Below, one piece after another: positions 45,195 through 58,624 of a DNA stretch of 64,000 bases; the first letter of the stretch is position 1; every line of letters begins with the position of its first letter. Origin of the DNA: Acidobacteriota bacterium (GTDB lineage: Bacteria; Acidobacteriota; Thermoanaerobaculia; Gp7-AA8); contig JAFATB010000019.1 in assembly GCA_019244185.1 (NCBI GenBank), positions 30,525 through 94,524 of the forward strand, read 5' to 3'. A program made the translations under genes and the position numbers. Below the pieces are notes generated by a model. The model was not told where the DNA came from, searched no databases, and was given only the letters and a program-made list of their open reading frames with translations.

Positions 45195-46907
45195 ATGCGC
45201 TGGAGCCGTTTCTTCATCAATACACTGCGAGAAGTGCCCGCCGACGCGGAAGTCGTCAGTCAGAGACTGATGATGCGCGCCGGCATGATCCGTAAAGTCG
45301 CCGCCGGCATTTACACGTATCTGCCGCTCGGCCTCCGTTCCATCCAGAAGATGGAGGCGATCGTCCGCGACGAGATGAACCGCGCGGGCGCGTCCGAGCT
45401 GCTGATGCCGTCCATCCAGCCGGCGGAGCTCTGGATGGAATCGGGTCGCTGGCAGAAGTATGGAAAAGAACTTCTGCGGATCAAAGACCGGCACGACCGC
45501 GACTTCGTCTTCGGCCCCACGCACGAGGAAGTGATCACGGACACCGTGCGCGACGCGATCAACTCGTATCGCCAGCTGCCGATCAATCTCTATCAAATTC
45601 AGACGAAGTTCCGCGACGAAGTGCGTCCGCGCTTCGGCCTCATGCGCGGCCGCGAGTTCATCATGAAGGACGCGTACTCCTTCCACACGACGCGCGAGTC
45701 GCTCGACGAGACGTACGACGTGATGCGCGACGCGTACAGCCGCATTTTTCATCGCTGCTCCTTAGACCACGTTCCCGTCGAAGCCGATACCGGCAACATC
45801 GGCGGCTCCGCATCGCACGAGTTCATGGTGCTCGCGCAGTCCGGCGAGGACGCGGTCGTGAGCTGCCCGAACTGCCGCTACGGCGCGAACGTGGAGAAGG
45901 CGACGTCGAAGTTCTTCGACGACGAAGTCGAGCCCGCGCCGTCGGAGGTGCTCGCCGAGCTGCATACGCCCGGCACGCAGAGCATCGACGACGTCGGCGC
46001 TTTCCTGAACAAGCCGACCTCGCAGCTGATCAAGACGCTCGTCTTCGACACCGACCTCGGTCCGGTGATGGTGCTCGTGCGCGGCGATCGCGCCGGCAAC
46101 GAGATCAAGATCAAAAACCACCTCGGCGCGCAATGGATGGAGATGCTCTCCGACACGCGCTTCGAGGAAACGACCGGCGGCCCGATCGGCTACTGCGGCC
46201 CGGTCGGCACGAAGTGCGCGCGCGTGCTCGCCGATCATTCGCTGCGCGGCCGCAAACGCTGGATCGTCGGCGGCAACCGCAAGGACATGCATTACGACTT
46301 CGCCGTGCCCGGCCGCGACTTTCCCGAGCCGGAGTTCGGCGACTTCACGACCGCCATCGAAGGCGATCCGTGCGTGCGCTGCGGCACGCCGCTCGAGATC
46401 TATCGCGGCATCGAAGTCGGCCACATCTTCAAGCTCGGCACGAAGTACTCCGAGGCGATGCAGTGCACGTTTCTCGATGAGAGCGGCCAGCGGCAGCCGA
46501 TGGTCATGGGCTGCTACGGCCTCGGCATCGGCCGCACGGTGGCGTCGGCGATCGAGCAGAGTCACGACGACGACGGCATCATCTGGCCGATGCCGATCGC
46601 GCCGTTCGAAGTCGTGGTGACGTCGGTCGGCAAAGACGAAGCGGTGCTGCGCACGGCAACCGAGGTGTACGAGAAGCTGAAGACGGAAGGCATCGACGTG
46701 CTGTTCGACGATCGCGACGAGCGTCCGGGCGTGAAGTTCAAGGACGCGGACCTCATCGGCTTCCCGCTGCGCATCGCCGTCGGCGCGAAGAGTCTCGCCA
46801 ACGGCCAGATCGAATGGAGCTTCCGCAAGGATCGCGCGAAGCAGCTCGGCGCGCCGGACGAGGTGCTGGCGCGCGTTGTCGAGGCTGTCAGGGCGGGGCT
46901 ATCATGA
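45195..46907 (+). CDS. proS: Proline--tRNA ligase (with editing insertion)
   Basis: GPTHEE, KFRDEVRPRFGLMRGREF, EVGHIFKLGTKYS, MGCYGLG. Confidence 0.98.
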   Translation: MRWSRFFINTLREVPADAEVVSQRLMMRAGMIRKVAAGIYTYLPLGLRSIQKMEAIVRDEMNRAGASELLMPSIQPAELWMESGRWQKYGKELLRIKDRHDRDFVFGPTHEEVITDTVRDAINSYRQLPINLYQIQTKFRDEVRPRFGLMRGREFIMKDAYSFHTTRESLDETYDVMRDAYSRIFHRCSLDHVPVEADTGNIGGSASHEFMVLAQSGEDAVVSCPNCRYGANVEKATSKFFDDEVEPAPSEVLAELHTPGTQSIDDVGAFLNKPTSQLIKTLVFDTDLGPVMVLVRGDRAGNEIKIKNHLGAQWMEMLSDTRFEETTGGPIGYCGPVGTKCARVLADHSLRGRKRWIVGGNRKDMHYDFAVPGRDFPEPEFGDFTTAIEGDPCVRCGTPLEIYRGIEVGHIFKLGTKYSEAMQCTFLDESGQRQPMVMGCYGLGIGRTVASAIEQSHDDDGIIWPMPIAPFEVVVTSVGKDEAVLRTATEVYEKLKTEGIDVLFDDRDERPGVKFKDADLIGFPLRIAVGAKSLANGQIEWSFRKDRAKQLGAPDEVLARVVEAVRAGLS

Positions 46908-48310
46908 ATTTCATGCGCAAGTTTCTCGTGGTGCTCGCCGCGTTCGCGGCGCTTCCGCTCGCCGCACAGAACGTCGACATCGAGGCGTTGTCGGGCCTGC
47001 AGTTCAATTTCGGCAATCCCGGCGCGCGTTCCCTTGGCATGGGCGGCGCGTTCCTCGGACTGGCCGACGACGCCTCCGCGGCCGAAGCGAATCCCGCCGG
47101 CCTCACGATCCTGCGCAAGCCGGAAGTCTCGGTCGAAGTGCGCAACTACCTCGAGCAGCAGCTCTTCTCGACGAGCGGCACGTTCCCGAACATCCAGCGC
47201 ACGCCGTTCACGCACTACAGCGACCGCGTGGTGATCAGCTTCGCCAGCGCGGTCTTCCCGATCAAGAAGTTCACCCTCGGCGCGTACTACCACGAGCCGC
47301 TCAACAACAAAGGCGGCGGCGTGGTCGCGCCGGTGACGGACCAGTTCACGGGACGCGTCACGACGCCGCTGCCGAACTTCTATCTGCCGGCGACGAATCG
47401 CGTGCCGTCGGGCGATCCGATCACGCTCGCCGAATGCCAGGCGCTGCGCACGCAGCGCAACGATCCGTTCGCGTGCCTCGAGTTCCGCATCAATCCGTTC
47501 GTCTCCGCGCTCGACGTGCGCGAGCGGACGTTCGGCCTCGCCGGCGCGTGGCAGATCCATCCGAAGTTCTCCATCGGCGCGACCGTGCGCCACCATCGCT
47601 TCGAGGAAGCGGCGTTCACCTCGCGCTACACGCAGCAGTTCGCGCTCGACGCGATCATCGTGCAGGCCACGGCGAAGACGAACGGCGGCAACGTCGACAT
47701 CGGCGAAGTCTCGGACACCACGTTCGCGGCCGGCTTCAAGTGGACGCCGCTCGACAAGCTGAGCATCGGCGGCGTGTACAAGCAGGGACCGCAGTTCGAG
47801 GCGCCGCTCTTCTTCGCGAACACGGCCTCGCAGTTCCAGTTCAACAACGTGGCGAGCACGAAGTTCCACGTGCCCGACATCATGGGACTCGGCGTCTCGT
47901 ACCGCCCGATCCCGGTGCTGACGATCAACGCCGACGCGGTGCGCGTGAAGTACTCGAATCTCGCCGACGATTTCGTGGCGTCGGTCGCCGACGTGCGCGA
48001 TCTCGAGGATCCGTTCGGCGCGAACGACGTGACGGAGCTGCACGCGGGCGCGGAGTACTTTTTCCCGACGAAGATCCCGTTCGCGCTGCGCGGCGGCTTC
48101 TGGCGCGACCCCGCGCATTCGATCGAGTGGCAGGGACCGCTCAACCGTCCCGACTACATCGCCGAGGCGCTGCTCTATCCGAAGGGCGAGTCGCAGAACC
48201 ACTGGGCGGTCGGCGGCGGCTTCGCGTGGCCGCGCTTCCAGATCGACTTCGGCTACGACTCGTCGCCGCACTACAAGGTGGGGTCGCTATCGATGGTCAC
48301 TCGTTTCTAA
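46904..48310 (+). CDS. OmpP1/FadL-like outer membrane beta-barrel protein
   Basis: Signal peptide, GARSLGMGGAFLGLADDASAAEANPAGL, terminal Phe. Confidence 0.85.
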   Translation: MNFMRKFLVVLAAFAALPLAAQNVDIEALSGLQFNFGNPGARSLGMGGAFLGLADDASAAEANPAGLTILRKPEVSVEVRNYLEQQLFSTSGTFPNIQRTPFTHYSDRVVISFASAVFPIKKFTLGAYYHEPLNNKGGGVVAPVTDQFTGRVTTPLPNFYLPATNRVPSGDPITLAECQALRTQRNDPFACLEFRINPFVSALDVRERTFGLAGAWQIHPKFSIGATVRHHRFEEAAFTSRYTQQFALDAIIVQATAKTNGGNVDIGEVSDTTFAAGFKWTPLDKLSIGGVYKQGPQFEAPLFFANTASQFQFNNVASTKFHVPDIMGLGVSYRPIPVLTINADAVRVKYSNLADDFVASVADVRDLEDPFGANDVTELHAGAEYFFPTKIPFALRGGFWRDPAHSIEWQGPLNRPDYIAEALLYPKGESQNHWAVGGGFAWPRFQIDFGYDSSPHYKVGSLSMVTRF

Positions 48311-48986
48311 GCGCCTCCAGCGGCACATCCATCAACTCGAATTTCTCCCATCCGCCAAAGTCAAAGTGCCACCACTCGGATGGCAGCGGCGCGAAGCCGT
48401 GCCGCGTCATCACGTCGCGCAGCTTCGCGCGATTCGCGACGACGTCCGGCGGCAGGTCGTTGAAATCCTGACGCGCGCGTGACGTGAAGTCGTCGTACGG
48501 CGTCGGCATCGCCAGCTCGGAGCCCGTGCGGAGGTCGATGAGCGTGAGATCGACGGCGGCGCCGCGATTGTGGCGCGAGCCTTTGGCCGGATCGGCCACA
48601 AAGTCCGGATTCCTGATCGGCTCCCACATCGCCTCGGTCACGCAATAGGGGCGATACGCGTCGAACACCTTCACGCCGAGTCCCTGTTGCGCGAGCTCGC
48701 GCTCGACGTCCGCCAGCGCGCGGGCGGCGGGCGCGCGCAGATACGCCTTCGCCACCGGATAGAGCGTGTGCTTCATGAAGTTGTTCGGCGTCGCGTAGCG
48801 GATGTCGAGCGGGATGCCCAGCGACGCGACGTCGACGAGGCGCGTGTCGGGATTGCGCCGCGCGAGACGCTCGTACGTCGCGCGATCGGGCACGACGTGA
48901 AGACCGTAGCGGTTCGCGGGAATCGCCACCTGCGACGCGCACGCGAGCGCGCATGCGACGAGAGCGAAGTTGATCGCGCGTTTCAT
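48297..48986 (-). CDS. ddpX: D-alanyl-D-alanine dipeptidase (M15D, VanX/DdpX-like) lipoprotein
   Basis: DIRYAT, DAYRP, SRHNRGAAVD, EWWHF; LACALAC lipobox. Confidence 0.9.
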   Translation of the reverse strand: MKRAINFALVACALACASQVAIPANRYGLHVVPDRATYERLARRNPDTRLVDVASLGIPLDIRYATPNNFMKHTLYPVAKAYLRAPAARALADVERELAQQGLGVKVFDAYRPYCVTEAMWEPIRNPDFVADPAKGSRHNRGAAVDLTLIDLRTGSELAMPTPYDDFTSRARQDFNDLPPDVVANRAKLRDVMTRHGFAPLPSEWWHFDFGGWEKFELMDVPLEALRNE

Positions 48987-49006
48987 GTCGCCTAATGTAC
49001 CGCCCG
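48970..49006. promoter_or_regulatory. Candidate bidirectional leaderless promoter
   Basis: + strand TTGATC-N17-TAATGT-N8-ATG(49007); - strand TACATT-N7-ATG(48986) on overlapping bases. Confidence 0.55.
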
Positions 49007-50197
49007 ATGGAGCTGGACATCTTCTTCTCGATCTGTCAGACCGACGTGCACGGGTACGTGCCGAGCGAGCGGGAGATGTTCGAGCACTTCTTCGAGCAGG
49101 TCGAGCTCGCGGACGCGCTGGGCTTCGGCACGGCGTGGGTCGCGGAGAGCCACCTCTCGACGGAGATTCAGAAAACGAATCCCGGCGCCGTGATCCCGCA
49201 CTTCATCGGCGAGATCGGCCTCAACACCGACATCCTGCAGCTCGCCCATCGCGTGTTCGCGCGCACGAAGCGCATCGGCATGGGCTCGGCGATCATGAAC
49301 ATTCTCTGCAACGGCGGACCGATCGCCGCGGCGGAGCGCATCAAGACGTTCCTCACGCTGCACGGGCTCGACCCGAACGAGCGGCGCACGCTGACGGTCG
49401 GCTTCGCGTCGGGACGCTTTCCGTTCATCAACGTTCCGTACGGCATCGTGCCGCGCAATCCCGTCGAGGCTGCGGCGTGGCCGGTGGTGAAGAACAAGAT
49501 CTTCGAGGAAGCGACGGAGATCTTCCTGCGGCTGCTGAAAGGGGAAGTGCTCAGCTCCGCGATGATCGCGCCGCGCGCGCTGCGCCGAGGGGACTTCCGC
49601 ACCGACGCCGACTGGCAGCGCGTGCAAGAGGCATTCGGTCAATACGTTGACGAAATCGCGCTCGAGCCGCGCTGGCGCTTTCCGAACCTCAAGATCGTGC
49701 CGCAGGAGCCGCGCATGGACCTGCTGCGGCTGTCGATCGGCTCGCACGATCCGGCGACGCAGATCTTCGCGAACACGATCCTCCCCGTCGGCGTCTTCAA
49801 TCTCTCCATCACGCCCGGCGCGGAGATCGAGGAGACGAACCGCCGCATGCAGACGCACTACCACGCCGACGGCGGCGGCTGGCAGCGGCGGCTGATGCCG
49901 CGCACGGTGCTGGTCTTCATCAGCGACGACGCGCAGCAGGCCGCGGACGAGGCGCGCGACGCGCTGTCGAACTACTGGCGCGCGCTCGAAGGCACGCTCG
50001 ACGAGGAGAAGGTGCGGCGCGCGACGAACAACGCGCTCGTCGGCACGCCGGACCAGATCGCGGAACAGATGCGCGAGCGCTTCGATCCCGAGGACCGGCT
50101 CATGCTCTGGTTCGACTTCAACAACCACGACTCGAAACGCGTGATGAAGAACATGCGCGACTTCATGACGCGCGTCGCGCCGGAGCTCGCGTCATGA
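49007..50197 (+). CDS. Luciferase-like (LLM class) flavin-dependent oxidoreductase
   Basis: ELADALGFGTAWVAESH, RTKRIGMGSA, AAAERI, LVGTPDQIAE. Confidence 0.88.
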   Translation: MELDIFFSICQTDVHGYVPSEREMFEHFFEQVELADALGFGTAWVAESHLSTEIQKTNPGAVIPHFIGEIGLNTDILQLAHRVFARTKRIGMGSAIMNILCNGGPIAAAERIKTFLTLHGLDPNERRTLTVGFASGRFPFINVPYGIVPRNPVEAAAWPVVKNKIFEEATEIFLRLLKGEVLSSAMIAPRALRRGDFRTDADWQRVQEAFGQYVDEIALEPRWRFPNLKIVPQEPRMDLLRLSIGSHDPATQIFANTILPVGVFNLSITPGAEIEETNRRMQTHYHADGGGWQRRLMPRTVLVFISDDAQQAADEARDALSNYWRALEGTLDEEKVRRATNNALVGTPDQIAEQMRERFDPEDRLMLWFDFNNHDSKRVMKNMRDFMTRVAPELAS

Positions 50198-51294
50198 CCA
50201 CCGTCGACGAAACGACGACGCCCACGGCCACGTTCGACGAGAGCGTCGCGCCGAACTTCGCGCGCGCGATGCCGAACTGGCAGCCGCTCGTCGAGTACCG
50301 CCGCAACGGCGTCGCCGAGAACACGATCCACGGCGCGGTGTCGTGGGTCACCGGCAAGAACCTGCTCTACTCGTTCGGCGGGAACGTCGAGGTCTACGGA
50401 CGCTCGATGGTGAAGCCGCTGATGATGAAAGTCTTCGCGCGCGACTTCGCGTCCGCGCTGACGCCGGAGCAGCAAGCCATCTCCGTCGCCTCGCACAACG
50501 GCGACACCGAGCACGTCGCCGTCGCGCGCTCCATCCTGCGCGAGAGCGAATGGGGCCTCATGCAGACGCCGCACGACGTGCCGCTCGTGCAGTTCGGCCG
50601 GCAGGTGCGCCGCCCGCGCCGCTGGTATCACTGCTGTTCCGGCGAGCACGCGGCCATCCTGCGCGGCTGCCGCCTGCGCGGCTGGCGCCGCACCGGCTAC
50701 GTCCTGCCGCATCATCCGTTCTTCCAGGAGTACATGCAGTACATGCGCGGCGTGCTCGGCGGCGACTGGAAGATGGGCACGATCGCGAAAGACGGCTGCG
50801 GCCTGCCGACGGTGTCGATGACGGTGACCGATCTCGCGAAGCTCTTCGCGAATCTCGTCACCGAAAAGCACGACGACTGGATCTGGCGCGCGATGGTCGA
50901 ACATCCCGATCTCATCGGCGGCTTCAACCGGCTCGACTCGACGGTGCTCAAGGCGTGCGGCGGCAAGGTCCTCGCGAAGGAAGGCGCCGACGGTCTCCTC
51001 GGCCTCGCCATCGAGCATCCCGAATTTCCCGAGGGACTCGGCGTGGTCGTGAAGATCGCGCACGGCTGGAACCCGCAGGCGACGTGGTACATCGCCCGCT
51101 ACATCCTCGGCGTCCTCGGCTTCGAGTTCCGCAACCCATACAAGCTCCGGCGGCAGAAGGCGTACATCGTCCCGGAAGTGATTCCGCCGAATTTGCGCGA
51201 GCGCATGGCCGCCATCGTGCCGTGGGACTCATGGGATCCGGACATCGACCGTTGGGAGTTCGATCCGCAGGAGTTCTTCATTGCGCCTCGCTAA
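50194..51294 (+). CDS. Asparaginase II (Rhizobium AnsA-type) fold hydrolase with atypical Zn-site motif
   Basis: RSMVKP, ASHNG, CCSGEH (family NCSGKH), DGCGLP, AKEGADG. Confidence 0.85.
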   Translation: MTTVDETTTPTATFDESVAPNFARAMPNWQPLVEYRRNGVAENTIHGAVSWVTGKNLLYSFGGNVEVYGRSMVKPLMMKVFARDFASALTPEQQAISVASHNGDTEHVAVARSILRESEWGLMQTPHDVPLVQFGRQVRRPRRWYHCCSGEHAAILRGCRLRGWRRTGYVLPHHPFFQEYMQYMRGVLGGDWKMGTIAKDGCGLPTVSMTVTDLAKLFANLVTEKHDDWIWRAMVEHPDLIGGFNRLDSTVLKACGGKVLAKEGADGLLGLAIEHPEFPEGLGVVVKIAHGWNPQATWYIARYILGVLGFEFRNPYKLRRQKAYIVPEVIPPNLRERMAAIVPWDSWDPDIDRWEFDPQEFFIAPR

Positions 51295-52708
51295 CTTCAT
51301 CAACGGCACCTTCGTCCCCCCGCGCGCGAACGCCTACCTCGACGACGTCGAGCCCGCCACCGGCGAAGTGCTCGCGCACGTTCCCGACTCCGACAGTCAA
51401 GATGTTGACGATGCCGTGCGCGCGGCGAAGGCGGCGTTCCCCGCGTGGGCGGCGATGCACGCCGAGCAGCGCAGCCGGTTGCTGCTGAAGCTCGCGGAGC
51501 TCATCGAACAGAACCTCGACGAGCTCGCGCAACTCGAGAGCCGCGACAACGGCAAGTCGGTCTCGCTCGCGCGGCGGCTGGACATCCCGCGCGCGGTGGC
51601 GAACTTCCGTTTCTTCGCCACGGCCATCCTGCATCACGCCAGCGAGGCGCACATCGCCGACGGGCACGCGCTCAACTACACGCTGCGCCAGCCGATCGGC
51701 ATTGCGGGTCTGATCTCGCCGTGGAACCTGCCGCTGTATCTGCTGTCGTGGAAGATCGCGCCTGCGCTCGCGTGCGGCAATACGTGCGTGGCCAAGCCTT
51801 CCGAGCTGACGCCGTTGACGGCGCAGCGGCTCGCGGAGCTTTCGCTCGATGCCGGCATTCCGCCGGGCGTCCTCAACATCGTGCACGGCTACGGCGCGAA
51901 AGCCGGCGCCGCGCTCTGCGAACACCCCGACGTGCCGCTGATCTCGTTCACGGGCGGCACCGTCACCGGCGCGAAGGTCGCCGCAACCGCGGCGCCGAAA
52001 TTCAAGAAGCTCTCGCTGGAGCTCGGCGGCAAGAACCCGAACCTCATCTTCGCCGACGCCGATCTCGACGAAGCCGTGTCGACGTCGATCCGCTCGAGCT
52101 TCTGGAATCAGGGCGAGATCTGTCTCTGCGGCTCGCGCATCTTCGTCGAGCGCTCGATCTACGACGCGTTCCTCGAACGCTTCGTGGCCGCGACGAAGCA
52201 GCTGCGCATCGGCGATCCGGCCGATCCACAAACCGATGTCGGCGCGCTGATCAGCGCCGCGCACCTCGAGAAAGTCACCGGCTATCTCCGCCTCGCCGAA
52301 GAAGAAGGCGGCACGATCGTCACCGGCGGCAAGCGCGTCGATCGTCCCGGCTTCTTTCTCGAGCCCGCGGTGATCACGGGCCTCGGCTGCGACTGCCGCG
52401 TCCTGCAGGAAGAGATCTTCGGACCCGTCGTCACCATCACGCCGTTCGACGCGGAAGACGACGCGATCGCGTTCGCGAACTCGACGCGCTACGGACTTTC
52501 GGCAACAGTGTGGACGCGCGATCTGCAGCGCGCGCATCGCGTCGCGGCGAAGCTCGACGCCGGCACGATCTGGATCAACTGCTGGCTATTGCGCGATCTG
52601 CGCGTGCCGTTCGGCGGCGTCAAAGACAGCGGCGTGGGACGCGAGGGCGGCGTCGATTCACTGCATTTTTTCACCGAGCCGAAGAACATCTGTGTGAAGC
52701 TGTCCTGA
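51281..52708 (+). CDS. Aldehyde dehydrogenase, 2-aminomuconate/2-hydroxymuconate semialdehyde dehydrogenase type
   Basis: DIPRAVANFRFFA, ISPWNLPLYLLSWKIAPAL, LELGGKNP, NQGEICLCGSR, WLLRDLRVPFGG. Confidence 0.88.
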   Translation: MRLANFINGTFVPPRANAYLDDVEPATGEVLAHVPDSDSQDVDDAVRAAKAAFPAWAAMHAEQRSRLLLKLAELIEQNLDELAQLESRDNGKSVSLARRLDIPRAVANFRFFATAILHHASEAHIADGHALNYTLRQPIGIAGLISPWNLPLYLLSWKIAPALACGNTCVAKPSELTPLTAQRLAELSLDAGIPPGVLNIVHGYGAKAGAALCEHPDVPLISFTGGTVTGAKVAATAAPKFKKLSLELGGKNPNLIFADADLDEAVSTSIRSSFWNQGEICLCGSRIFVERSIYDAFLERFVAATKQLRIGDPADPQTDVGALISAAHLEKVTGYLRLAEEEGGTIVTGGKRVDRPGFFLEPAVITGLGCDCRVLQEEIFGPVVTITPFDAEDDAIAFANSTRYGLSATVWTRDLQRAHRVAAKLDAGTIWINCWLLRDLRVPFGGVKDSGVGREGGVDSLHFFTEPKNICVKLS

Positions 52709-53976
52709 TGGACGAGCTCGATTCGCAGAGCATTCGCTGGCATCCGGCCACGCGCGTCCTCTTCCGCTTCGCCTTCGCCTTCTTCGTCCTCATCAACGCG
52801 CCGTTCCCGCTCGACTACATCCCGGGTGTCGGCAGCGCGTGGATGAAGATGTGGCAGGCGGCGGTGCCCGTGATCGCCGAGCGCGTCTTCCGCGTGAAGA
52901 CGCCGATGCTGCCGAACGGCAGCGGCGACACGACGTGGAACTGGGTCCAGATCGCGACGATGCTCGCCGTCGCGCTCCTCGTCACGATCGTCTGGAGCGT
53001 CCTCGATCGCCGCCGCACGCAGTACACGTGGCTGCACGAGGCGCTGCGCATCTACGTCCGCTTCGCGCTCGCGCTCACGATGATCTTCTACGGCATGGAC
53101 AAGGTGATGGTGGCGCAGTTCCCGCCGCCGTCGCTCGAGAAGCTCGCGCAGCTGTACGGCGACTCCTCGCCGATGGGCGTGCTGTGGGCTTTCATGGGCT
53201 ACTCGAACGCGTATCAATGTCTCACCGGACTCGTGGAAACCGTCGCCGGCATCCTGCTCACGTTCCGCCGCACGACGCTCCTCGGCGCCTGCGTCTCGAT
53301 CATCGCGATGACGAACGTCGTTGCGCTGAATTTCTTCTTCGACGTGCCGGTGAAGATCTACTCGTCCGAGCTCCTGCTGATGGCGGTCTTTCTCACCGTA
53401 CGCGATCTGCCGCGGCTCGCGCGTTTCTTTCTCGATCAGCCCGCCGACGCGCCGCCACCGCCGCCGCTGCGCATGCGTCCGTGGGTGCGCCTCACGGCGA
53501 TCGTCGTGCGCAACGTGCTCATCGCGCTCTACATCTACCAGTGCGTCGAGCACGTCCACGACATCCGCAAGTACATGGAAGTGGGCCTCGAGTCGCCGCT
53601 GCGCGGCGTATGGAACGTCGACGAGCTCGTGTTCGACGGCAAGCCGCGCCCGCCGCTGACGACCGACTTCACGCGCTGGCGCCGCGTGGTCATCGACCGT
53701 CCCGGCTTTCTCTCGATCTACTCGATGGAAGACAAACGGCAGCGCTTCACGGCCAAAGTCGACGAGAAGAAGCAGACCATCGACGTCGAAGACCGCGACA
53801 ACGCGAGCGTGAAGTTCACGCTGCACTACCAGCGTCCCGCGCGCGACGTGCTGGTGCTCGACACGAACGCGCTGGGTCACGCGATCCACGCGACGTGCAG
53901 GCGCCGCGCGGACCAGAACTTCTTCCTGGTCACGCGCGGCTTCCACTGGGTCAACGAACAGCCGCTGAATCGCTAG
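52708..53976 (+). CDS. DoxX-like polytopic membrane protein
   Basis: NGSGDTT, YGMDK..QF, SPMGVLWAFMG, NFFFDVPVK, RGFHWVNE. Confidence 0.75.
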   Translation: MDELDSQSIRWHPATRVLFRFAFAFFVLINAPFPLDYIPGVGSAWMKMWQAAVPVIAERVFRVKTPMLPNGSGDTTWNWVQIATMLAVALLVTIVWSVLDRRRTQYTWLHEALRIYVRFALALTMIFYGMDKVMVAQFPPPSLEKLAQLYGDSSPMGVLWAFMGYSNAYQCLTGLVETVAGILLTFRRTTLLGACVSIIAMTNVVALNFFFDVPVKIYSSELLLMAVFLTVRDLPRLARFFLDQPADAPPPPPLRMRPWVRLTAIVVRNVLIALYIYQCVEHVHDIRKYMEVGLESPLRGVWNVDELVFDGKPRPPLTTDFTRWRRVVIDRPGFLSIYSMEDKRQRFTAKVDEKKQTIDVEDRDNASVKFTLHYQRPARDVLVLDTNALGHAIHATCRRRADQNFFLVTRGFHWVNEQPLNR

Positions 53977-53983
53977 CGTCGAT

Positions 53984-56078
<2,095 letters not shown>

Positions 56079-56092
56079 TGCGCGCGCGCCAG

Positions 56093-56127
56093 TTGACCTG
56101 CCGCGACGCGTCGCGCATTCTGCGCCG
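56093..56127 (+). promoter_or_regulatory. Candidate sigma70 leaderless promoter for the alpha-RidA fusion gene
   Basis: TTGACC-N17-CATTCT-N6-GTG(56128); no SD. Confidence 0.5.
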
Positions 56128-57552
56128 GTGATTCAGAAGGCGTACATCGTTCCGGGCCAGCCGCATCCGCTCCTCGCGCCGGAGAAAAATGCCGGATGGG
56201 CGTCGCTGCGGCGCAGCTACGAGGCCGTCGGGAAGGAAATCGAGCGTTCCGGAGCGGAGCTGATCCTGCTTTATTCGACGCAGTGGTTCTCCGTCATCGG
56301 GCATCTCTTCCAGATCGACCCGAAGCCGAAGTGGACGCTCGTCGATCAGAACTGGTACGCGCTCGGCGAGATCCCGTACGAGTTCCGCATCGAACCGGAG
56401 TTCGGCAAGCTCTACGCGCGCCTGTGCAAAGAGCACGGCATGCAGGCGGCGACGGTCGCGTATCACGGCTTCCCGATCGACACCGGCACTGTCGTCGCGC
56501 TGAAGCTTCTCAACCCGAACAACGCCATCCCCGCGTCGGTCGTCTCGTGCAACATCTACGCGGAGCGCGAGGAAACGCGCGCGCTGGGATTCGCCGCGCG
56601 TGCCGCGATCGAGGCGTACGGCAAGAAGACGATCGTCGTCTGCGTGACGAATCTCTCGAACCGTTACGAGGTCGCGGACATCGATCCCGCGCACGACCGC
56701 ATCTCGTCGCAGAAAGACGACGAGTGGAACCGCAAGATCCTGGAGATGTTCGGCGAGGGTCGGCTCGAAGACGTCGCGCAGGTCGCCCGCGACTTCGCGC
56801 GCGAGGCCAACGCCGACATGAACTTCAAGGCGATCTGGTGGCTCGGCGCGGTGATGGGCGAGCACAACAAGTACGACGGCAAGGTGTGGGATTACCAGCC
56901 GGTGTGGGGTACCGGCAACGCCATCGTCGAGCTCACGCCGAACGACCGCAAGCAGATGGACTGGGAGAAGGAGTTCGACGAGGGACCGGTCCCGGAGTTC
57001 GCGGCGGGCGGTACCGGACTCGAGTCGCATAACGTGCTCGCCGAAGGGCCGGACGTGCACCGGCAGAGCGAGCTCTCGTCGCAGGACGATTACGGCGGCG
57101 CCGCGCCCGCGTCCTCGCAGACGGCTGCTGCAGCGCAGCCGCCGCAGATCATCCGCAGCGAACGCGCGCCGAAGCCGGTGGGGCCGTATCCGCACGCGCG
57201 CCGCGTCGGCGACTTTCTCTTCCTCTCCGGCATCGGTCCGCGCACGCCGGGCACGAACGAGATCCCCGGCCTGCTGCGCGACGGTGCGGGCAGCGTCATC
57301 GGCCACGACATCGACGTCCAGACGCGCGCGTGCATCGAGAACGTGAAGACGATCCTCGAGGAAGCGGGCAGCTCGCTCGCGAAGGTGCTCGACGTGACGG
57401 TGTATCTCACCGACATGCAGGGCGACTTCGCGCGCTTCAACGAGGTCTACGCGGAATACTTCGGCACGATCCAGCCGACGCGCACGACCGTCGGCGTCGA
57501 CTCGCTGCCGACGCCGATCGCGGTCGAGTTGAAGGTCATCGCCGCGGCGTGA
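56128..57552 (+). CDS. Fusion: 2-aminophenol 1,6-dioxygenase alpha subunit-like domain + RidA/YjgF (2-aminomuconate deaminase-like) domain
   Basis: VPGQPHP, YSTQW, VDQNW, FPIDTGT, DDEWN, DMNFK; about 60-aa linker; APKPVGPYPHARRVGDFLFLSGIGPR..PTRTTV..LPTPIAVELK. Confidence 0.88.
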   Translation: MIQKAYIVPGQPHPLLAPEKNAGWASLRRSYEAVGKEIERSGAELILLYSTQWFSVIGHLFQIDPKPKWTLVDQNWYALGEIPYEFRIEPEFGKLYARLCKEHGMQAATVAYHGFPIDTGTVVALKLLNPNNAIPASVVSCNIYAEREETRALGFAARAAIEAYGKKTIVVCVTNLSNRYEVADIDPAHDRISSQKDDEWNRKILEMFGEGRLEDVAQVARDFAREANADMNFKAIWWLGAVMGEHNKYDGKVWDYQPVWGTGNAIVELTPNDRKQMDWEKEFDEGPVPEFAAGGTGLESHNVLAEGPDVHRQSELSSQDDYGGAAPASSQTAAAAQPPQIIRSERAPKPVGPYPHARRVGDFLFLSGIGPRTPGTNEIPGLLRDGAGSVIGHDIDVQTRACIENVKTILEEAGSSLAKVLDVTVYLTDMQGDFARFNEVYAEYFGTIQPTRTTVGVDSLPTPIAVELKVIAAA

Positions 57553-57556
57553 GCGC

Positions 57557-58624
57557 TCACGACGCGCGCGTCGAGTCGTAGGCGGTCATGAGCCGCTCGG
57601 CCGCGCGCGGGTAGCCGAACTCCAGCGAGCGCTGGTACACCGCGCGCCGCAGCGGCTCGGGCTCGCGCGCGAGAAGGTCGGCGGCGAGCGCGGCGAGGGC
57701 GCCCGGCGCCGCGGCGCTCGCCACGTGTGCGCGGCCGGTGAGCGCGAGGACGCCTTCGATTGGATAGACGGCCGGCGGCACGCCGCACGCCATCGCCTCG
57801 AGCACGGCGCGATGACCTTCGTCGGAGCCGCGCGCGGTGAAGAAGAGCAGATCCGCGGCGCGGTAATGCTCGGCGAGATCGTCCTCGTGATAGCCGGCCC
57901 AGAGCACATCATCCGCGACGCCGAGCTCGCGAGAGAGCGTTTCCAGCGCCGGCCGATGCTCGCCGTGGCCGATGATCATCAGGCGCACCTTCGTCGTCGA
58001 CGCGCGCAACTCCGCGAACGTCCGCAGCGCGTCTTCGAAGCCGCGTCCCGCGGAGAGCTTGCCGATCACGGTGACGAGCTTCGTTTCCGGCGCGATGCCG
58101 TACTGCGCGCGCACGTCGCCGCCCGCGGGCGTGAACTGCCGGTGATCGAGCGGCGGCGGCGTGAAGGTGACCTCGCGCCCGCCGAAGACCGGCGCGCCGA
58201 GGAACGCGTCGTTGATCGCGAAGAGATGCGCGGTGCGCGCGATGAGCGAGCGCGTGAAGACGTCCGAGCGCAGCACGCGCCGCGCGTGGAACGTGCGCGC
58301 GAGCCGCAGGCGCGGATGGTTGCGCGAGACGGCGCGCGCGAGCCAGTGGTCGTAGGTGAGATGCGCGTGCAGGACGTCGAAGCCGTGCTGGTGGACCATC
58401 CGGTCGAGCGCGCCGAGGGAGCGGACGAACGTCATCGGGTTCTGCGCCTTCTCGATGAGCGGATGCGCGAAGTCGTGATGCTCGAGCTTCGCCTGCAGCT
58501 TGTAGCCGCCGACGTACGCGTAGTGCGCGTCGACGCCGGCCGCGCGCAAGGCTTCGACTTCGGCGAAGGCCGGTGCCGCGGCGCCGGTCCAGCGGTTGCC
58601 CGCGGCGAGATGGAGAACGCGCAT
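57557..58624 (-). CDS. Glycosyltransferase family 4
   Basis: MRVLHL, DVLHAH, IGKLSAGRG, DEGHRAVLEAMACGVP. Confidence 0.85.
   Translation of the reverse strand: MRVLHLAAGNRWTGAAAPAFAEVEALRAAGVDAHYAYVGGYKLQAKLEHHDFAHPLIEKAQNPMTFVRSLGALDRMVHQHGFDVLHAHLTYDHWLARAVSRNHPRLRLARTFHARRVLRSDVFTRSLIARTAHLFAINDAFLGAPVFGGREVTFTPPPLDHRQFTPAGGDVRAQYGIAPETKLVTVIGKLSAGRGFEDALRTFAELRASTTKVRLMIIGHGEHRPALETLSRELGVADDVLWAGYHEDDLAEHYRAADLLFFTARGSDEGHRAVLEAMACGVPPAVYPIEGVLALTGRAHVASAAAPGALAALAADLLAREPEPLRRAVYQRSLEFGYPRAAERLMTAYDSTRAS

Follow-up and report, generated by a model that had tools for sequence, protein, structure and literature searches.

A cluster of five genes in the stretch of DNA analyzed here, a window of 64,000 nucleotides from an Acidobacteriota bacterium (G+C ~0.66, on contig C14 of a 5.3-Mb genome that is 98.9% complete), appears to encode a route of tryptophan catabolism that does not depend on kynureninase. 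The reading that we favor, with moderate confidence, is that a luciferase-like flavin monooxygenase (LLM) carries out a Baeyer-Villiger oxidation of kynurenine and that the product is then split into aspartate and 2-aminophenol by Asn2, a hydrolase with the fold of class 3 asparaginases. The cluster couples a known lower pathway to a putative new upper one, both enzymes of which are orphans, and relatives of Asn2 are present in the genomes of at least 593 species from several bacterial phyla, plus contigs labeled marine group II archaea. To our knowledge, every described aerobic ring-opening route of tryptophan passes through kynureninase.

In the proposed route, tryptophan 2,3-dioxygenase (TDO), together with arylformamidase where present, would supply L-kynurenine. 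The LLM, working as a two-component FMNH2-dependent enzyme, would insert an oxygen atom into the bond that joins the ketone carbon to the aryl ring (Baeyer-Villiger oxidation with aryl migration) to give the beta-(2-aminophenyl) ester of L-aspartate, from which an O-to-N acyl shift could yield N4-(2-hydroxyphenyl)-L-asparagine. Either compound would suit Asn2, because both are beta-aspartyl derivatives that an asparaginase fold with an alpha-amino-acid anchor could bind. Like an asparaginase, Asn2 would use its metal site to bind the alpha-amino acid end, and it would hydrolyze the beta-acyl bond to L-aspartate and 2-aminophenol. The two subunits of a 2-aminophenol 1,6-dioxygenase, AmnB and AmnA, would then open the ring to 2-aminomuconic semialdehyde, an aldehyde dehydrogenase (ALDH) would oxidize this to 2-aminomuconate, and the RidA domain carried by AmnA would deaminate 2-aminomuconate to 4-oxalocrotonate.

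The observations behind this proposal concern gene identities, synteny, phyletic pattern and gene fusions. All five genes lie on the forward strand. That for the LLM (48995-50197; PF00296, 50.7 bits against a Pfam cut-off of 27.9) encodes a divergent family member and probably has its consensus start at the ATG at 49007, the position given in an earlier note on this DNA. An ATGA at 50194-50197, read from the sequence, is common to its end and to the start of Asn2 (50194-51294; PF06089, Asparaginase_II, 172.5 bits, cut-off 25), and Asn2 in turn overlaps ALDH (51281-52708; PF00171, 584.9 bits) by 14 nucleotides provided that the TTG at 51281 is the ALDH start. The catalytic beta subunit of the dioxygenase, of the LigB fold, is encoded by amnB (55161-56078; PF02900, 93.1 bits). 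Starting 49 nucleotides past it, amnA-ridA (56128-57552; PF02900, 68.6 bits; PF01042, 95.2 bits) encodes the LigB-fold alpha subunit (~residues 1-270), a linker, and RidA (~residues 340-474, window 57145-57552). Pfam searches and reading of the sequence thus confirm the five genes and the three overlapping frames that the earlier note had described. Its statement that the two dioxygenase genes follow ~2.5 kb further on needs a qualification: the 2.45 kb between ALDH and amnB is occupied by two other genes, for a DoxX-like membrane protein and a tetratricopeptide repeat (TPR) protein.

When one genome per species was scanned for a sequence pattern, at least 593 relatives of Asn2 were found among 600 candidate stretches; the best 80 of these loci were compared by tblastn with the proteins of the window. 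In 57 near loci, labeled Thermoanaerobaculia or Acidobacteriota as are all the nearest public loci, Asn2 is 80-90% identical to ours. In the other 23, the far loci, it is 63-71% identical, and their labels are Holophagaceae, Bdellovibrionota, Myxococcota, Eisenbacteria, "Rickettsiales" and two archaeal ones. LLM, ALDH, AmnB and AmnA are all found beside Asn2 in every far locus that has at least 1.5 kb of sequence upstream and at least 4.5 kb downstream (14/14), and in 24 of the 38 near loci with the same flanks. Five genomes in which the locus has no amnB were searched whole, and all five have an AmnB 90-91% identical elsewhere. AmnA and RidA share one open frame in 40 of the 42 loci that hold both parts. 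Inserts seen in other loci were considered as hidden pathway genes and rejected, being unrelated genes mostly on the opposite strand (for a BNR protein, a deacetylase, an extracytoplasmic function sigma factor, DinB, a WYL regulator and an OmpA-like protein).

The lower half of the cluster is securely of the amn type, and from sequence kinship its activity on 2-aminophenol is predicted. AmnB matches, over residues 3-296, the solved beta subunits of 2-amino-5-chlorophenol 1,6-dioxygenase (CnbCb, 3vsg_B, 445.1 bits) and of 2-aminophenol 1,6-dioxygenases (AmnB 8ihg_A, 421 bits; 7txy_B, 384 bits), and the N-terminal 270 residues of AmnA match solved alpha subunits at 161-192 bits (7txy_A 192, 3vsg_A 166.8). 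The best PDB matches of the AmnC-like ALDH are 2-aminomuconate 6-semialdehyde dehydrogenases (4npi, 4i1w and 5kj5, 466-469 bits); against the NCBIfam model for 2-hydroxymuconic semialdehyde dehydrogenase it scores 581.9 bits, under the cut-off of 693.25. The RidA domain exceeds the cut-off of TIGR00004 (107.4 bits) and scores 95 bits against 2-aminomuconate deaminase 6izh_A and 103 bits against the generic RidA protein PH0854, so that its assignment as a 2-aminomuconate deaminase is made because it is fused to AmnA.

The connection to tryptophan comes first from the genes that recur beside the cluster. These were identified by clustering the open reading frames (ORFs) of the 23 far loci and checked by tblastn. 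TDO (kynA) is among them in six far loci by ORF clustering and four by tblastn, with 190-195 bits to Pfam and 264 bits to TIGR03036. Directly after amnA-ridA, 10/23 far and 11/57 near loci have a PF04199 protein whose sole NCBIfam match is the arylformamidase model TIGR03035 (180-192 bits, cut-off 223), that is, a kynB-type gene. A short-chain dehydrogenase/reductase (SDR) stands directly upstream of LLM in 17 of the far loci by clustering and 12 by tblastn (for example, L063:8037-8819); neither the window nor any of the 57 near loci has it. Five far loci, all of them Bdellovibrionota, carry a reductase that matches Fre and LuxG. ORF clustering revealed no further conserved neighbor families among the 23 far loci.

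The phyletic pattern points the same way. In a sample of 151 Acidobacteriota genomes, seven have an Asn2 orthologue; orthologues of LLM and of AmnB occur in the same six of these seven and in none of the other 144. TDO is present in all seven, compared with 48/144 of the others, and kynureninase (E<=1e-40) in none of the seven, compared with 33 of the 48 TDO-positive genomes that do not have the cluster; no TDO-positive genome has both kynureninase and the cluster. Fisher tests give p ~7e-4 and ~8e-4, values that overstate the case because five of the seven positives belong to one family. The tallies include two unpublished genomes without the cluster, G029 (TDO and kynureninase) and G155 (TDO only); when these are left out, the figures for the remaining genomes become 46/142 for TDO and 32/46 for kynureninase. 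Among 101 Bdellovibrionota genomes, Asn2 is found in six, TDO in 6/6 of these and 44/95 of the others, and kynureninase in 0/6 compared with 18 of the 44 genomes that have TDO and no Asn2. Pooling the two samples, all 13 Asn2-positive genomes have TDO and none has kynureninase. Five further cluster genomes from other phyla also show no kynureninase above the cut-off (0/5); one has a 120-bit relative.

These results bear on the possibility that the 2-aminophenol comes from another source (N-acyl-aminophenols, benzoxazinoid breakdown products or nitroarene metabolites), with LLM and Asn2 as its feeders and kynA and kynB as incidental neighbors. An amidase could well deacylate an N-acyl-aminophenol, kynA is not linked to the cluster in this genome, which is also devoid of kynB-type genes, and the known amn, cnb and nbz operons serve xenobiotic aminophenols (PMC3790839; PMC6742747). 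We nevertheless regard such a source as decidedly improbable. In several phyla the gene string itself includes TDO and arylformamidase genes, and TDO accompanies Asn2 in 13/13 genomes as against 48/144 and 44/95 of the rest. Proteins that are 53-93% identical across phyla and occur in the genomes of at least 593 species would, moreover, be more in keeping with a universal substrate than with a niche xenobiotic. Kynurenine remains the substrate that we prefer. The earlier note had put forward LLM and the asparaginase-fold enzyme as a non-canonical upper pathway leading to an o-aminophenol, and had looked to gene neighborhoods in other genomes for linkage to amnBA, ALDH and RidA, for co-occurrence with kynA and for absence of kynureninase. 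That proposal is now supported by the linkage across phyla in 14/14 far loci, by the kynA and kynB-type arylformamidase genes beside the cluster in far loci, and by the 13/13 and 0/13 counts for TDO and kynureninase.

Asn2 is related to the solved class 3 L-asparaginases of Rhizobium etli, ReAIV (8cly, 78 bits) and ReAV (61 bits). It shares with them the fold family (PF06089), the Ser-Lys tandems and both cysteines, and differs in one residue of the metal site, in a conserved C-terminal extension (with a W344-W354 region invariant in alignment A1) and in its conserved operon context. The catalytic residues of ReAV are named as Ser48, Lys51, Ser80 and Lys263 in PMC8602277. Residues S71/K74 and S100/K262 of Asn2 align with Ser48/Lys51 and Ser80/Lys263, respectively, and are invariant in alignment A1; the Ser-Lys motifs are present in 79-80 of the 80 related loci. 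C148 and C202 are kept as the equivalents of Cys135 and Cys189 in the ReAV metal site, and Glu151 replaces the Zn ligand Lys138, leaving the Cys-Lys-Cys Zn site of ReAV incomplete. A metal site in Asn2 is plausible on its residues despite Glu151. The metal of ReAV is described as anchoring L-asparagine through its alpha-amino and alpha-carboxy groups, and ReAV as having no glutaminase activity (PMC12951835; PMC8602277). At the Lys138 position, 74 of the 80 loci have Glu and six have Lys (L067, L069, L072, L073, L076 and L077, all Bdellovibrionota), so a change from Lys to Glu was rejected as a universal signature of the Asn2 subfamily. The Fre/LuxG-like reductase lies upstream on the opposite strand in all six Lys-keeping loci except L072.

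Proteins of the Asn2 type are annotated "L-asparaginase" or "asparaginase" by their sources, and that name, along with the retained ReAV catalytic residues, would fit the view that Asn2 is a plain L-asparaginase and LLM an unrelated oxidoreductase, both merely neighbors of an amn operon. This is scarcely credible in view of the rest of the genome and of the other loci. A second PF06089 gene, on contig C2 of the same genome, is canonical (328.6 bits, compared with 172.7 for Asn2), keeps the Lys and is only 26% identical to Asn2, so that the hydrolase is not this genome's ordinary class 3 asparaginase, as the earlier note's proposal called for. Across phyla, the order LLM-Asn2-ALDH is kept and so are the overlapping frames; there are also fusions of AmnA to Asn2. 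The operon context and the canonical paralogue both disfavor L-asparagine as the physiological substrate of Asn2, which we propose to be a hydrolase of the beta-aspartyl 2-aminophenyl ester or of N4-(2-hydroxyphenyl)asparagine.

The fusions were found by a search among longer database proteins. P0121, P0122 and P0123 (719-736 residues) each combine an N-terminal AmnA-like domain (52% identical) with a C-terminal Asn2 orthologue (61-67% identical); they are predicted from assemblies, and merged gene calls are possible. Such fusions tie Asn2 to the dioxygenase. Most lineages have the silent AmnA subunit joined to RidA and another has it joined to Asn2, an arrangement that suggests a scaffold. 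The fusions also weigh on a second outcome of Baeyer-Villiger oxidation that is chemically conceivable with the very same enzymes, namely alkyl migration to O-anthraniloyl-L-serine, which Asn2 would split into anthranilate and serine. We consider this very improbable: anthranilate is not the type of substrate used by AmnBA-like extradiol enzymes, an asparaginase-type alpha-amino-acid anchor fits an aspartyl rather than an anthraniloyl acyl group, and the fusions together with the strict co-occurrence of LLM, Asn2 and AmnB say that the product of Asn2 feeds the aminophenol dioxygenase. Aryl migration, giving the aspartyl ester, is the course that we retain.

The LLM has no relative among solved structures. 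Its best single-sequence match in the PDB has an E-value of 0.007, and a profile of 24 sequences reaches 25.5 bits at best, the only matches being two entries named "alkanal monooxygenase alpha chain" (18.8-25.5 bits); no NCBIfam subfamily matches above 28 bits. In other loci, orthologues with 53-88% identity immediately precede Asn2. LLM-fold enzymes are known for Baeyer-Villiger and amide-cleaving reactions, and aromatic hydroxylation is unusual for them. We propose that the LLM is a kynurenine Baeyer-Villiger oxygenase, on grounds of mechanism rather than of family membership.

The earlier note had instead assigned ring hydroxylation to the LLM. In that scheme the LLM would substitute for kynurenine 3-monooxygenase (KMO) by hydroxylating the kynurenine ring, AmnBA would cleave 3-hydroxykynurenine or 3-hydroxyanthranilate, and Asn2 would be a substitute for kynureninase or a later amidase. 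The tryptophan context and the absence of kynureninase fit this scheme equally, and its first product is isobaric with that of Baeyer-Villiger oxidation. We rate it unlikely, and below Baeyer-Villiger oxidation, on the family of the hydrolase, the absence of an ACMSD-type decarboxylase and the kinship of the dioxygenase. The Ser-Lys acyl-hydrolase site of Asn2 suits amide and ester bonds and not C-C cleavage of the kynureninase type. Cleavage of 3-hydroxyanthranilate would call for a decarboxylase of the type of 2-amino-3-carboxymuconate semialdehyde decarboxylase (ACMSD), and none is found among the conserved neighbors in the 23 far loci or among the Amidohydro_2 proteins of the genome. AmnB, at 445 bits, is close to the solved 2-aminophenol and 2-amino-5-chlorophenol dioxygenases.

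Two observations on LLM sequences are recorded here in their own right. P0124, a database protein of 1,501 residues with a eukaryotic source tag, is 42% identical to the full-length LLM over residues 1-434 and continues with GATase-like and ApbE (FMN transferase) domains. Either two gene models have been merged here, or the protein may reflect a genuine connection with flavin handling. The LLM orthologue of one Acidobacteriota genome (G074:C32:80593-81702) is split over two adjacent frames, covering residues 2-196 and 218-396, through either a frameshift or an assembly error.

The window's own genome is not the clearest witness for the kynurenine route. Its sole TDO (G000, C18:16308-17009; L086:9309-10010) has 233 residues, lies directly after ribBA and scores 93 bits to Pfam and 109.6 bits to TIGR03036, whose cut-off is 390.7. 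Low-scoring TDO matches of this kind (50-63 bits) are seen across the whole family, and also in the cluster-less genomes G020, G053 and G078. There is no kynureninase candidate in the genome; KMO was not searched for. A search for 3-hydroxyanthranilate 3,4-dioxygenase (3-HAO) returned only a 54-residue stretch (24.7 bits) inside a 720-residue frame, and the PDB matches of the genome's Amidohydro_2 proteins include no solved ACMSD.

Several points weigh against the proposed route. The substrate and both upper reactions are inferred from gene context and chemistry, and the LLM has no detectable similarity to any solved LLM, Baeyer-Villiger enzymes included. Neither kynA nor kynB is in the window; the genome's TDO is short, divergent and on another contig, and a search of the genome for PF04199 formamidases gave none. 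The operon in the window is interrupted by two unrelated genes, 14/38 near loci are without one or more parts within 10 kb, and of the Asn2-positive Acidobacteriota genomes one (G061) has no LLM or AmnB that we could find and another (G074) has its LLM in two frames. Five of these seven genomes, moreover, are kin rather than independent cases. Absence of kynureninase is by itself weak evidence, because 15/55 TDO-positive Acidobacteriota and 26/50 TDO-positive Bdellovibrionota have neither kynureninase nor the cluster; other fates of kynurenine may operate in those genomes. The scheme assigns no role to the SDR that stands beside LLM in 12-17 of the 23 far loci. At the lower end, the genome's best match to TIGR03217 (4-hydroxy-2-oxovalerate aldolase) is 60 bits, against a cut-off of 286, so that no aldolase was found above cut-off to act below 4-oxalocrotonate; two FAA_hydrolase proteins are encoded away from the cluster. 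Genes for 4-oxalocrotonate decarboxylase, hydratase, aldolase and acetaldehyde dehydrogenase were likewise not seen among the conserved neighbors in the far loci by ORF clustering. With no linked kynA, kynB lost and two inserts, the cluster of the window is a degraded example.

Compared with known systems, the cluster shares AmnB, AmnA and an AmnC-type ALDH with the modified meta-cleavage pathway of 2-aminophenol, as encoded by the amn operons of Pseudomonas sp. AP-3 and of Burkholderia xenovorans LB400, by cnb of Comamonas and by nbz; its RidA domain is a candidate for the 2-aminomuconate deaminase of that pathway. Unlike these, it has neither a nitroreductase/mutase feeder nor lower genes of the amnE/F/G/H type; its AmnA is fused to RidA, and it travels with LLM, Asn2 and, elsewhere, kynA/kynB. 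With the canonical kynurenine pathway the proposed route would share its start (TDO and arylformamidase) and its end (2-aminomuconate semialdehyde dehydrogenase and deaminase). The middle would be replaced, in keeping with the 0/13 count for kynureninase and a genome without a convincing 3-HAO or ACMSD, and the expected side products would be aspartate and 2-aminophenol, in place of the alanine, 3-hydroxyanthranilate and CO2 of the canonical pathway.

Mechanistic parallels can be found outside tryptophan metabolism. Bacterial luciferase, the diketocamphane monooxygenases and RutA (which works with RutB and RutC) are LLM-fold oxygenases with Baeyer-Villiger or amide-cleaving chemistry, and the Rut pathway combines a two-component flavin oxygenase, a hydrolase and a RidA protein, as is proposed here, where a Fre/LuxG-like reductase lies nearby in 5/23 far loci; beyond the Pfam family, though, our LLM has no detectable sequence relation to any of these oxygenases. 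The 4-hydroxyacetophenone pathway of Pseudomonas fluorescens ACB, which uses a Baeyer-Villiger oxygenase, an esterase and a hydroquinone dioxygenase, follows the same logic as that proposed, from aryl ketone to aryl ester to phenol and acid, followed by ring cleavage and semialdehyde oxidation. Its 4-hydroxyacetophenone monooxygenase (HAPMO) is a single-component FAD enzyme of a fold other than that of LLM. The likeness is one of mechanism and not of family, the present cluster having an LLM oxygenase, an asparaginase-fold hydrolase and an aminophenol where the other runs via 4-hydroxyphenyl acetate and hydroquinone (PMC3727088). Our literature search, which did not cover supplementary files, found no description of this route from kynurenine to 2-aminophenol, and a report on an actinobacterial ARO microcompartment with amn genes (PMC10470539) makes no mention of kynurenine, tryptophan, luciferase, asparaginase or monooxygenase.

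A wider reading, on which we are evenly divided, is that the cluster represents a widespread undescribed route with the first known kynurenine Baeyer-Villiger oxygenase, an "aryl-asparaginase" and an AmnA scaffold that channels toxic 2-aminophenol within a complex. If true, two enzyme activities would be new, that of the oxygenase and that of a beta-aspartyl-aryl hydrolase with a class 3 asparaginase fold, and there would be an explanation for the role of amn-type genes in organisms that never encounter nitroarenes. The "L-asparaginase" annotation of >1000 database proteins would also be corrected, and metabolic reconstructions would change for soil and marine groups that are abundant and uncultured.

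Several other genes lie within or around the cluster. The DoxX-like membrane protein (52708-53976, forward strand; 422 residues, with a lipocalin-like C-terminal domain) matches no Pfam family above cut-off and takes its name from Atlas neighbors called "DoxX family protein". The ATG of its gene overlaps the ALDH stop by one nucleotide, and homologues lie between ALDH and amnB in 10/57 near and 0/23 far loci; it is an accessory gene or an insert. The gene for the secreted TPR protein (53984-55084, reverse strand and convergent; weak TPR matches) has no homologue at this position in any of the 80 related loci and is an insert that breaks the operon, outside the pathway. Of ~30 ORFs in the window outside this neighborhood, ten were scanned and showed nothing related to the pathway. 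A promoter and terminator scan of 48200-58000 was uninformative, with no promoter-like sites and seven terminator-like sites compared with 5.0 +/- 2.3 in shuffled sequences. After amnA-ridA comes an opposite-strand glycosyltransferase gene. Upstream of LLM lie a gene for a FadL/TodX/PorV-like outer-membrane protein (46814-48310, forward strand) and one for an M15 D-Ala-D-Ala dipeptidase (48297-48986, reverse strand), the latter divergent to LLM with 8 nucleotides between the outermost start codons. Together with the gene for ProRS, these two are syntenic only in near loci, in 21-35 of the 57.

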